From NCBI RefSeq assembly GCF_057098645.1, contig NZ_CM169472.1: a DNA stretch of 64,000 bases; one strand, written 5' to 3'. Below, in pieces: positions 42,343-46,639 of the stretch (position 1 is its first letter; each line of letters begins with the position of its first letter). The notes below the pieces were generated by a model. It saw only the letters and a program-made list of their open reading frames with translations, had not been told where the DNA came from and searched no databases. Position numbers and translations under genes: made by a program.

Positions 42343-43191
42343 TCATGCTTCGTCTGGCTGCCAGCCTTCCGTATACCAGATATGCAACAGCGCATAAGAA
42401 CGCCAGGGCTTCCAGCGCTCGGCATAACGGCGGATTTGCGCCGGTGTCATTCCCGGAAATCGCTGTTTAATCAGATAATCATCCGGCAGGAAAACATCTT
42501 TCGCCTGCCAGCCACGCAAAGCAAAATAATTCGCCGTCCAGCTCCCGATACCCGGAAAAGTTTGCAGCGTTTTCATCGCCTGCTCCACATCGCCCGGTAT
42601 TGTCATTGGTAAGGTGCCCTCCAGCGCCGCATTTGCCAGATGAATCAGCGCCTCTGCCCGTTTCAACGGCATACCTAACGCTTTTAATGCCTGCGGGTCT
42701 GCTGCTGCCAGCCGCTGAGGCGTGGGGAAGCAGATATACTCCGGAAAATCATCCAGCCGTTCGCCATAAAGCTGTGCCACTCTGGCGGTCAATTTTGCCG
42801 CCATCGCCACGCTCACCAGTTGGCCTAAAATCGCCCGCACGCCCTGCTCAAAAGCATCAACACTGCCGGGTAAACGCAATCCGGGCCGCGCCGCGCCTAA
42901 CTTGCCCAACGCACCGTTAACAATCTGCGGGTTACATTGCAGATCAAGCAGGCGGCTCATTTTCGCCAGACACTCAGCGGCAACGGGTTCTAAACCTACA
43001 CTTAAATTTATGTGCAGAGTATGGCGGGCTATATCCGGAACAGCAGTCACCACGCCGCGATATTCGCCCACCGCCAGACTACGGGCATAATAACTGTCCG
43101 CGACCGTTTCCACACCGCTCACCGCACGGGCGGCGAGAAATCCCAACATCCACGACCAGTCATACGGCGGCTGCCAGTTCAGGGTATACAT
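42343..43191 (-). CDS. alkA: DNA-3-methyladenine glycosylase II
   Basis: 282 aa; MYTLNWQPPYDWSWMLGFLAARAV recognised as AlkA; HhH-GPD region. Confidence 0.92.
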   Translation of the reverse strand: MYTLNWQPPYDWSWMLGFLAARAVSGVETVADSYYARSLAVGEYRGVVTAVPDIARHTLHINLSVGLEPVAAECLAKMSRLLDLQCNPQIVNGALGKLGAARPGLRLPGSVDAFEQGVRAILGQLVSVAMAAKLTARVAQLYGERLDDFPEYICFPTPQRLAAADPQALKALGMPLKRAEALIHLANAALEGTLPMTIPGDVEQAMKTLQTFPGIGSWTANYFALRGWQAKDVFLPDDYLIKQRFPGMTPAQIRRYAERWKPWRSYALLHIWYTEGWQPDEA

Positions 43192-43240
43192 CGCATCTCC
43201 TTATTCATCCGCTTTCAGCATAAACGTTATTCAGACGCTA

Positions 43241-43258
43241 CGCTTTGCTTTCATATTC
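43241..43258 (-). promoter_or_regulatory. Candidate Ada box (AAT-N6-GCAA) in the alkA promoter
   Basis: Minus strand reads aatatgaaagcaaagcg 50-65 bp upstream of the alkA ATG; matches the Ada box A/B spacing (AATnnnnnnGCAA). Confidence 0.55.
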
Positions 43259-43324
43259 CGGTTGTCGCGACGGCAACATTTCGCTAAAGTCACGCCCCTT
43301 CTTCACCGGCATGGGGATTAATTC

Positions 43325-44677
43325 GTGTTTATTGGTTTTGATTACGGTACAGCAAACTGTTCAGTGGCGGTCATGCGTGACGGTAAACCGCAATTACTGA
43401 AAATGGAAAACGACAGCACGCTGCTGCCTTCAATGCTTTGCGCGCCAACGCGTGAAGCAGTAAGTGAATGGCTGTACCGCCATCATGATGTTCCGGCAGA
43501 CGACGATGAAACGCAGGCGCTGTTATGTCGGGCGATTCGTTATAACCGCGAAGAAGATATCGATGTTACGGCGAAAAGCGTGCAGTTCGGTCTTTCCTCA
43601 CTGGCACAGTACATTGATGATCCAGAAGAAGTGTGGTTTGTGAAATCACCAAAATCGTTCCTCGGTGCCAGCGGCTTAAAACCGCAGCAGGTAGCGCTGT
43701 TTGAGGATCTGGTCTGCGCAATGATGTTGCACATTCGCCAGCAGGCGCAGGCGCAGCTGCCAGAAGCGATTACTCAGGCGGTGATTGGTCGCCCGATCAA
43801 CTTCCAGGGGCTGGGCGGCGATGAAGCAAACGCCCAGGCGCAAGGGATTCTGGAACGCGCGGCGAAGCGTGCCGGATTCAGGGACGTGGTATTCCAGTAC
43901 GAGCCGGTCGCGGCTGGGCTGGATTACGAAGCCACCTTGCAGGAAGAAAAACGGGTGCTGGTGGTGGATATCGGCGGTGGTACGACTGACTGTTCATTGC
44001 TGCTGATGGGACCGCAGTGGCGTTCGCGTCTCGATCGTGAAGCCAGCCTGCTGGGTCACAGTGGTTGTCGTATTGGCGGTAACGATCTGGATATCGCCCT
44101 GGCGTTTAAAAACCTGATGCCACTGCTGGGTATGGGTGGCGAAACCGAAAAAGGCATCGCCCTGCCGATCCTGCCGTGGTGGAATGCGGTTGCCATCAAC
44201 GACGTACCTGCGCAGAGTGATTTCTACAGTAGTGCCAACGGTCGTCTGCTTAACGATCTGGTACGCGATGCCCGCGAACCGGAAAAAGTGGCCCTGTTAC
44301 AGAAAGTCTGGCGTCAGCGTTTAAGCTATCGCCTGGTGCGTAGCGCAGAAGAGTGCAAAATTGCTCTTTCAAGCGTAGCGGAAACCCGCGCCTCACTGCC
44401 GTTTATCAGCAATGAACTGGCTACGCTGATTAGCCAGCGAGGGCTGGAAAGCGCCCTCAGCCAGCCACTGACGCGGATTCTGGAACAGGTGCAACTGGCC
44501 CTGGATAACGCCCAGGAAAAACCGGACGTTATCTACCTGACCGGCGGTAGCGCCCGTTCTCCGCTGATTAAAAAAGCGCTGGCAGAACAGTTGCCGGGCA
44601 TTCCGATTGCAGGCGGCGATGACTTTGGCTCCGTCACCGCCGGGCTGGCACGCTGGGCGGAAGTGGTGTTTCGTTAA
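43325..44677 (+). CDS. yegD: Hsp70-family (actin-like ATPase) protein YegD
   Basis: 450 aa; MFIGFDYGTANCSVAV and DIGGGTTDCSLL motifs of the Hsp70/sugar-kinase fold. Confidence 0.88.
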   Translation: MFIGFDYGTANCSVAVMRDGKPQLLKMENDSTLLPSMLCAPTREAVSEWLYRHHDVPADDDETQALLCRAIRYNREEDIDVTAKSVQFGLSSLAQYIDDPEEVWFVKSPKSFLGASGLKPQQVALFEDLVCAMMLHIRQQAQAQLPEAITQAVIGRPINFQGLGGDEANAQAQGILERAAKRAGFRDVVFQYEPVAAGLDYEATLQEEKRVLVVDIGGGTTDCSLLLMGPQWRSRLDREASLLGHSGCRIGGNDLDIALAFKNLMPLLGMGGETEKGIALPILPWWNAVAINDVPAQSDFYSSANGRLLNDLVRDAREPEKVALLQKVWRQRLSYRLVRSAEECKIALSSVAETRASLPFISNELATLISQRGLESALSQPLTRILEQVQLALDNAQEKPDVIYLTGGSARSPLIKKALAEQLPGIPIAGGDDFGSVTAGLARWAEVVFR

Positions 44678-44689
44678 TTGAAAAATGGC

Positions 44690-46639
44690 TCAGCAGCGGC
44701 TTAAATCTGCCTGCGCCTGAGCCAGTTTTTCTGCTGCCTGACGTAACGGTTCCATCAACGGCATGGTCCGTGCTGGAGCATGAAGGCGGAATCGCTGCAA
44801 CTCTGTCGCGCCGACTGTCAACGCCGATTCCAGCCGATGTCGTTTGGCGGTCATTTTCGCCATTACCGCTTGTCTGTCTGCTGGCGTTATCGCTTCATTC
44901 GGCCTGAACACAAAACGGCGTTCACAGCTCGCTTTCCAGTCGATAACCGCCTGGGTCAGATGGTCGCCAAACCCTTTCACTTGCTTAACGCCACGACGGG
45001 TAACATCTGCGGCTGTTTCAATACCAAAAGACCGTAACGCCGCTTTACGCGCAGGGCCAACGCCGGGAATAGAGGCAACATCAATAAAAAATCCCTCCAG
45101 AAACTTCTGCTTCTGCCGTTCCCTTGCAGTGTCATGAAGTGCTGCCAGAGCGCGTTTCTCTTCTTCCGGTAACCCGAGAATTTCGTCCTTCATTTTTTCG
45201 AGCATCGTCCGTTTGGCGATAAAACCTTCCAGGCCGCCTACCTGCTGGATCTGGCGGACTAAATGGTCATAGTCCATTTTCGCACGATTAAATGCCTCAC
45301 GGCGTTGCTGAACTTCTGCTTTGTACGCTTTGCTTGTCAGACTGCCAATAATCCAGATAGCCGCCAGCACAGGAACCAAAATAATATAACGCGGTTCTGC
45401 CTGAAGGCCGCAAAGCAGCAGCGATAATGCTGACAGTGCGATCTCAAGCAGAATGATGTATTCGCGCCGTAACAGGCCTAAAGGAAGCGGCCTGCCAGTC
45501 GGTTGGAAATGATCGGGTAATGGCAGTTGCAATGCTGGCGGTGCTACTGACGCCATCACCATCGCCCAGACTTTCGCCAGCACAAAATTCCCGCCGGTGG
45601 TAATGACCTCTTCGCCGAGATCAATAAAATAGATAACGCCTTGATTATCCAGCGTACACCACGGGCAGTCGGTCAAATGAGCGGGATAAACATGCATTGC
45701 CGAAACGGTACATTTCTTTAACTGTTGGCGTAGAGAATCCAGTGCTGCTACCCACGCTTTAGCCGTCGGACGCCCGGTTGCTACACCACTTTCCGTAAAC
45801 GCCTGCTGAAACATGGCTTCAACATCGCCCGGTAACATCGACAGCGGAATCGATCGTGGCGGCGGTTTTAAACCACGTCGCTGATTATCTGACGCGTAGG
45901 CATAACGGAAATGGGCAATATCCGTCTCCAGCGCATTACCCGCATCAGAGATAAGCGGCACACCAGAATAAGGATGCCGCCCACCAAACAAGACGTGAAA
46001 AATAAGCAACGCAAGGCCAAAATTATCGTGATTCGCGGTACGTTCAAAACCGACAAATGATGGCAAGGTTTGTAGCTCTGGCGGCGTAAAATGCGACACG
46101 CCGACTTCGCATAAATGCAGTGTGCCATTGGCGTTAATCTGAAAGGAGTCACTATCGATCAACACCACTTTGCTGTCGCGACCTACCATAAAGCTGTTCT
46201 GGTTTACGTCCCCCACGACGTGCCCGTGCTCGTGAACCGTAGCAAAAGATGAAGCAATATTGCGCGCAACATAGAGTAGAAAATCCCACGCACAATGAGG
46301 GTAACTCTGGCGACGATGTGCCGGGCTATAGATCATATGAATCGGTTCTTTACCAGAAACTTTTGGCATCATAAAACCGATAACTTTTCCGCCTCGCCCA
46401 CCGTGAAGCGTTGCCTGCGGCCAGGCGACATAATTCAACAACTGCGCGTCAGCTGTCGCAGCCATAAAGGCAAGTTTGTCCTGTTTTAAGGCGGGTGGCG
46501 GCGTGTGATAAATCTTGGCGACGCTATCGGCAAACTCCTCGATATCATAAACCGCACCTTCACCGCCTTTGCCCAGTTCACGGCCTGGCGTAACGCACTC
46601 ACCAGTAGCAGTATATAAAGTGGGTTTCATGGTAACCAC
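44690..46639 (-). CDS. yegI: Eukaryotic-like Ser/Thr protein kinase YegI (kinase domain, two central hydrophobic helices, C-terminal HhH-like segment)
   Basis: 649 aa; glycine-rich loop LGKGGEGAVYD; hydrophobic stretch near residues 390-430; IPGVGPARKAAL helix-hairpin-helix-like motif; start overlaps pphC stop. Confidence 0.85.
   Translation of the reverse strand: MVTMKPTLYTATGECVTPGRELGKGGEGAVYDIEEFADSVAKIYHTPPPALKQDKLAFMAATADAQLLNYVAWPQATLHGGRGGKVIGFMMPKVSGKEPIHMIYSPAHRRQSYPHCAWDFLLYVARNIASSFATVHEHGHVVGDVNQNSFMVGRDSKVVLIDSDSFQINANGTLHLCEVGVSHFTPPELQTLPSFVGFERTANHDNFGLALLIFHVLFGGRHPYSGVPLISDAGNALETDIAHFRYAYASDNQRRGLKPPPRSIPLSMLPGDVEAMFQQAFTESGVATGRPTAKAWVAALDSLRQQLKKCTVSAMHVYPAHLTDCPWCTLDNQGVIYFIDLGEEVITTGGNFVLAKVWAMVMASVAPPALQLPLPDHFQPTGRPLPLGLLRREYIILLEIALSALSLLLCGLQAEPRYIILVPVLAAIWIIGSLTSKAYKAEVQQRREAFNRAKMDYDHLVRQIQQVGGLEGFIAKRTMLEKMKDEILGLPEEEKRALAALHDTARERQKQKFLEGFFIDVASIPGVGPARKAALRSFGIETAADVTRRGVKQVKGFGDHLTQAVIDWKASCERRFVFRPNEAITPADRQAVMAKMTAKRHRLESALTVGATELQRFRLHAPARTMPLMEPLRQAAEKLAQAQADLSRC

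Follow-up and report, generated by a model that had tools for sequence, protein, structure and literature searches.

The Ada protein is methylated at Cys38 after it has repaired methylphosphotriesters in DNA, and Ada placed against a promoter without a usable −35 element recruits RNA polymerase. The alkA Ada box is a textbook element of the adaptive response of Escherichia coli. According to Booth et al. 2013 and the Mielecki and Grzesiuk review, the definition of the Ada site was changed by structural work (He et al. 2005) to a pair of elements, an A box (AAT) and a B box (GCAA), and both sources place such a pair in the promoters of ada, alkA, and aidB. Reviews report that methylated Ada binds directly at alkA, and alkA is described as being stimulated by both methylated and unmethylated Ada. 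The ada and aidB sites lie further upstream and require the C-terminal domain of the RNA polymerase α-subunit, whereas the alkA site abuts the −35 position; binding of the α-subunit at the alkA promoter requires Ada (Mielecki and Grzesiuk review). The pattern that describes the site, AATNNNNNNGCAA, is stated by Booth et al. 2013 to be equally common genome-wide upstream of responsive and unresponsive genes.

At the locus described here, alkA is transcribed divergently from yegD, which encodes a poorly understood Hsp70 homologue. This arrangement raises the question of whether one asymmetric activator site squeezed in between back-to-back promoters lets regulation leak onto the neighboring gene. 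Sites that serve two promoters bidirectionally are typically bound by symmetric dimers. A first-pass annotation of this DNA had noted a match to AAT-N6-GCAA upstream of alkA and raised the possibility that Ada binding induced by alkylation also influences yegD. If Ada did affect yegD, the alkylation response would be linked to an Hsp70-like protein whose translation is also activated by RyhB, an iron-starvation sRNA, the number of transcription units responsive to Ada would rise to five with yegD, and the locus would offer a simple model for promoter crowding. Here, we used comparative data to obtain a precise map of the alkA–yegD promoter region, which makes the idea about yegD precise as well.

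The alkA–yegD intergenic region

The window, i.e., the whole 64,000-nt stretch of DNA that was analyzed, carries alkA and yegD as divergent genes separated by exactly 133 bp (43192–43324; Table 1), and RefSeq also annotates yegI at this locus. A longer N terminus of YegD is ruled out by an in-frame TAA at 43319–43321. The RefSeq annotation and the Pfam HSP70 match of YegD bear out the earlier designation of the divergent partner as Hsp70-like. Chromosomes of E. coli O145:H28 are 100% identical to the window over 2.4 kb around the Ada box. The locus was found in 5417 of the 5426 complete E. coli genomes, and the 133-bp region had at least 95% identity in 5411 of the 5426. The arrangement is the same in K-12 MG1655, with 2147540 as the position of the alkA ATG and 2147674 as that of the yegD GTG.

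For comparison between species, we collected 80 loci encoding YegD relatives, using one genome per species. The protein homologue search returned close relatives only, and the synteny comparison therefore covers the Enterobacteriaceae. The divergent neighbor of yegD was alkA in 79 of the 80 loci. Intergenic regions of normal length (n = 78: the window, K-12, and 76 species) were used for the base-level comparison. An Rfam search of 43100–43500 gave no match at E ≤ 1.

Table 1. Coordinates of genes and regulatory features in and around the alkA–yegD intergenic region (window positions)
Feature	Position	Strand	Remarks
alkA (3-methyladenine DNA glycosylase II)	42343..43191	−	282-aa ORF; RefSeq annotation of identical genomes; Pfam AlkA_N and HhH-GPD
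alkA TSS (G)	43210	−	Kim et al. 2012 TSS table, mapped via the alkA ATG (2145564 = 43191)
alkA −10 hexamer TATGCT	43217..43222	−	−12 to −7 of the mapped TSS; conserved across genera
Ada box AATATGAAAGCAA	43257..43245	−	Single AATNNNNNNGCAA match in the intergenic region
A box AAT	43257..43255	−	Part of the Ada box
B box GCAA	43248..43245	−	Part of the Ada box
yegD −35-like hexamer TTGTCG	43262..43267	+	Separated from the −10 by 17 bp; TTG at this spacing in 73/78
Most strongly conserved intergenic block	43277..43317	+	41 nt; column conservation, 76 distinct sequences
yegD −10 hexamer TAAAGT	43285..43290	+	Exact in 78/78; 8–9 nt upstream of the mapped TSS
yegD TSS	43298 or 43299	+	SMRT-Cappable-seq Supplementary Data 2; 26–27-nt leader
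yegD (Hsp70-family protein)	43325..44677	+	450-aa ORF, GTG start; RefSeq; Pfam HSP70

The Ada box and the alkA promoter

The intergenic region contained a single match to the Ada pattern, located on the alkA strand, 53 nt ahead of the ATG of this gene, confirming the first-pass observation. The match has the complete grammar of an Ada box at alkA: A box AAT, 6-nt spacer, and B box GCAA. Matches to AATNNNNNNGCAA were not enriched in the window, with 14 found against 18.35 ± 3.61 expected from shuffles, and a match would arise by chance in 133 bp with a frequency of ~3.7% on either strand or ~1.9% in the correct orientation. Three further lines of evidence show that AATATGAAAGCAA is a real site and not a chance match. 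First, Table 7 of Booth et al. 2013 gives the same 13-mer as the alkA entry, also 53 nt upstream, alongside AATTAAAGCGCAA as the ada box; the same study reports that MNNG induces alkA 2.72 log2. Second, with the published alkA TSS as +1, the 13-mer occupies −47 to −35. Third, it is conserved across ~25 enterobacterial genera. AATATGAAAGCAA is thus the canonical, long-known Ada operator of the alkA promoter, and its identification as the alkA Ada box, although correct, reproduces textbook knowledge.

The alkA TSS was reported by Kim et al. 2012 at 2145583 on the minus strand in old coordinates, with 39 reads, a 19-nt 5′ UTR, and the upstream sequence CGGAATATGAAAGCAAAGCGCAGCGTCTGAATAACGTTTATGCTGAAAGCG (−50 to +1). 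The 19-nt leader carries the Shine–Dalgarno sequence AAGGAG. The promoter lacks a usable −35 element; instead, the B box faces the promoter and abuts the usual site of a −35 hexamer. The alkA promoter is not discussed in Grosvik 2020.

The window shares with the K-12 alkA Ada site (Landini & Volkert 1995; He et al. 2005) the 13-mer, the 53-nt distance, the −10 hexamer, and the TSS, and the two sequences differ at only 2 positions in 211 bp around the Ada box. One difference changes the K-12 sequence AAAGCGCA to AAAGCGTA at window position 43240 (−30 of alkA), which is outside the A and B boxes. This position varies freely between genera, and the T found here is also present in Escherichia albertii and many Citrobacter species. 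The other difference lies 4 nt upstream of the yegD GTG. The alkA box has the same A/B grammar as the ada–alkB and aidB boxes, with the 6-nt spacer and the B box pointing toward the promoter.

An exact A/B box was present in 68 of the 78 intergenic regions. The distance from GCAA to the alkA −10 hexamer was 22 nt in 70 of the 73 regions scored, while the sequence in between was highly variable. Since the length of this spacer is constant and its sequence is not, the activator site and the alkA core promoter appear to be functionally coupled.

The yegD promoter and its position relative to the Ada box

SMRT-Cappable-seq assigns yegD to a monocistronic operon (b2069) with a forward TSS at 2147647, the GTG at 2147674 corresponding to window position 43325. 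The TSS may lie 1 nt further downstream, at 43299, if the source is 0-based, since the dgcE TSS in the same dataset is 1 lower than in Kim et al. 2012. The yegD TSS was undetected in the latter study, consistent with low expression. Phylogenetic footprinting revealed a sigma-70-type promoter, TTGTCG-17-TAAAGT, in front of this TSS, with a 17-bp spacer that is constant in length and variable in sequence. The hexamers score 8 out of 12, below the cut-off of a generic scan. Accordingly, a generic sigma-70 consensus scan of 43000–43500 returned no promoter; since both real promoters fall below its 9/12 threshold, this empty result says nothing about the absence of promoters.

The alkA and yegD TSSs are arranged back to back, 88 bp apart, and of the 16 bp that separate their −35 positions the Ada box takes up 12. 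With respect to yegD, the box lies at −53 to −41 and is inverted, the A box being on the yegD side, 4 bp away from the −35 hexamer. The yegD promoter is therefore only marginally outside the Ada-occupied region: no part of its core (43262–43298) falls within the 13-bp box, yet the −35 hexamer starts just 4 bp away.

The linker that joins the box to the yegD −35 hexamer was 4 bp in 57 species, 5 bp in 8, 3 bp in 2, and 20 bp in 1 (Yokenella), and the two elements overlapped in 5. The 4-bp linker is thus kept in 57 of the 68 species with an exact box. The spacers of 22 bp (alkA) and 17 bp (yegD) were almost never changed, as opposed to linker lengths altered by +1, −1, +16, and ~−20, so that insertions and deletions have accumulated at the junction between the two modules. 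The register between box and yegD is not fixed across species, nor does the B box point toward the yegD promoter, and AAT-N6-GCAA did not occur on the yegD strand in any of the 78 intergenic regions.

The locus resembles compact divergent promoter pairs with a central regulator site in that the TSSs are 88 bp apart and one activator site fills most of the 16 bp between the −35 positions. It differs from such pairs in that the Ada site is an asymmetric monomer site tied by conservation to alkA only, and in that an Ada-dependent response of yegD is not on record.

Natural rearrangements of the region

Several genomes carry rearrangements that separate the elements of the region. In Enterobacteriaceae bacterium UBA5654 (L032, 2280–2500), the only one of the 80 loci without alkA beside yegD, the box is missing, and an unrelated convergent gene end and a terminator-like hairpin are found in place of alkA. 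The yegD promoter and leader block are intact in this locus, with TTGCAG at the −35 spacing. In Enterobacter sp. Bisph1 (L060, 1309–2500), a 1.2-kb AT-rich insertion lies inside the Ada box. Its alkA side keeps GCAA, with a new GAT replacing the A box, and its yegD side keeps TTGTCG-17-TAAAGT, so that each gene is left with its own core promoter.

A different event was observed in five species (L029, L031, L035, L040, and L041), in which yegD has lost its TTGTCG to a ~20-bp deletion and the A box is reduced to GAT or ATT. As a result, TTGC.., the B-box complement, lies 16–17 bp from TAAAGT. This complement would act as the yegD −35 element in these species, and Ada binding would then overlap the yegD promoter.

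Two further insertions leave a copy of the box on the yegD side. In Trabulsiella guamensis (L066), a 67-nt direct duplication (1220–1286 and 2410–2476) comprises the Ada box together with the complete yegD promoter and the initial leader bases, and it flanks a ~1.1-kb AT-rich insert with small ORFs only; as a consequence, both alkA and yegD have a copy of the box. In E. coli 23CRST001 (L082, NZ_AP045758.1, 1283–2491), an IS4-family ISVsa5 transposase gene is located in the alkA–yegD intergenic region. The insertion point corresponds to window position ~43231, between the alkA −10 hexamer and the Ada box, and presumably uncouples alkA from Ada.

Possible influence of Ada on yegD

Published expression data on the adaptive response were surveyed for yegD. 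In W3110 treated with MMS (Baek et al. 2009), ada and alkB were upregulated at 0.5, 1.5, and 3.9 h and alkA at 3.9 h, and alkA was not induced in an ada mutant. yegD appeared in 0 of the 6 up and down lists of that study, the arrays of which were insensitive, alkA itself reaching only log2 1.13 at 3.9 h. In the MNNG tiling-array study (Booth et al. 2013), yegD is not named in the text, including among the MNNG-repressed genes mentioned there; the 185-gene list of that study is separate from its text and ncRNA tables. A literature search yielded no report on yegD in alkylated cells or ada mutants and no genome-wide Ada ChIP data in E. coli, and papers naming both yegD and alkA did so incidentally.

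The next genes downstream of yegD, namely yegI, yegJ, and pphC (b2070–b2072; window 44690–46639 and downstream), were all listed with alkA as upregulated at 3.9 h of MMS treatment, at log2 ~1.0–1.3 (Baek et al. 2009). yegD, located between alkA and these genes, is absent from that list. The rise of b2070–b2072 may be unspecific, since the list holds several hundred genes.

We consider it likely that AATATGAAAGCAA serves as the Ada operator of alkA while the alkA and yegD promoters are independent modules on a short common spacer, any effect of Ada on yegD being small and incidental. Methylated Ada on the box would recruit RNA polymerase to the alkA promoter, and yegD is transcribed from its own TTGTCG-17-TAAAGT promoter. 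A selected link between Ada and yegD is argued against by the inverted orientation of the box, its loose spacing from the yegD promoter, the retention of this promoter without alkA or the box, and the absence of yegD from the MMS lists. Thus, the geometry would allow Ada to influence yegD as proposed, but the present analysis lends this idea no support, and a small or null effect is predicted.

A measurable change in yegD transcription caused by assembly of Ada and RNA polymerase at alkA seems unlikely, with a decrease being likelier than an increase. A decrease could come about by promoter competition, in which Ada bound at −53 to −41 of yegD, together with the α C-terminal domain placed upstream of Ada and atop the yegD −35 hexamer, would crowd or occlude the −35/UP region, so that alkylation modestly lowers yegD transcription. 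Mild competition is conceivable because the Ada-dependent α-subunit contact known from the alkA promoter would fall on the yegD −35 region when made upstream of the box. The short distances involved, with the end of the box 4 bp from the hexamer and the TSSs only 88 bp apart, are compatible with such interference, and in the five species with the ~20-bp deletion, in which the box complement occupies the yegD −35 site, bound Ada would occlude the promoter. However, the variable length of the linker argues against a selected interaction, and back-to-back promoters at such a distance are often occupied independently. In addition, yegD is in none of the MMS down lists and is not among the MNNG-repressed genes that the text of Booth et al. 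2013 names. On balance, we regard competition as quite improbable.

The opposite outcome, in which alkylation raises yegD transcription, appears less probable still. Ada could in principle contact RNA polymerase at yegD from −53 to −41, a position within the range of upstream activators, making the box a bidirectional site. Alternatively, negative supercoils generated by divergent alkA transcription could act on the yegD promoter, whose GC-rich discriminator, CACGCCC, could confer supercoil sensitivity. The joint appearance of b2070–b2072 and alkA among the several hundred genes upregulated at 3.9 h could be taken to point the same way, but yegD itself is in no MMS up list. Moreover, the Ada monomer is asymmetric, and all known promoters activated by Ada have the B box facing them, whereas yegD has the box in inverted orientation; the spacing between box and yegD is not conserved, and the yegD promoter is kept where the box is missing.

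Finally, it is hardly credible that AAT-N6-GCAA is coincidental and that the functional alkA Ada site is instead the older consensus AAANNAAAGCGCA, which partly overlaps it: the bare pattern is indeed no commoner than chance in the window and K-12 carries AAAGCAAAGCGCA, but the window has AAAGCGTA, with one mismatch, AAAGCGCA is kept in only 7 of the 78 intergenic regions as against 68 for the A/B box, which favors the A/B-box definition, and structural work has redefined the Ada site in these terms.

A conserved block around the yegD start site

The most strongly conserved block of the intergenic region is on the yegD side. It comprises the yegD −10 hexamer, the GC-rich discriminator, the TSS, and the leader CUUCUUCACCGGCAUGGGGA down to a GGGGA Shine–Dalgarno-like sequence. 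Across ~25 genera, this block is more strongly conserved than the Ada box, and it is kept in UBA5654, Enterobacter sp. Bisph1, and T. guamensis, whatever the alkA context. Readings of the block as a sigma-32, sigma-28, or IscR type-2 site were considered by eye; each had a poor spacing or match and disagreed with the mapped TSS.

In published ribosome profiling, yegD was the top gene translationally activated by RyhB, and lacZ fusions confirmed the effect when they were translational but not when they were transcriptional; no convincing base-pairing between RyhB and yegD has been predicted in the literature. In our hands, the predicted RyhB–yegD duplex was no better than with shuffled mRNA, which equaled or surpassed it in fractions of 0.29 and 0.20, so that duplex prediction does not explain the known activation. 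Likewise, the fold of the yegD leader with the early coding region (−15.2 kcal/mol, z = −0.13) was no better than that of shuffled sequences. yegD is also repressed anaerobically in Shigella. The 43277–43317 block could be the target of another regulator or of RyhB-dependent translational control.
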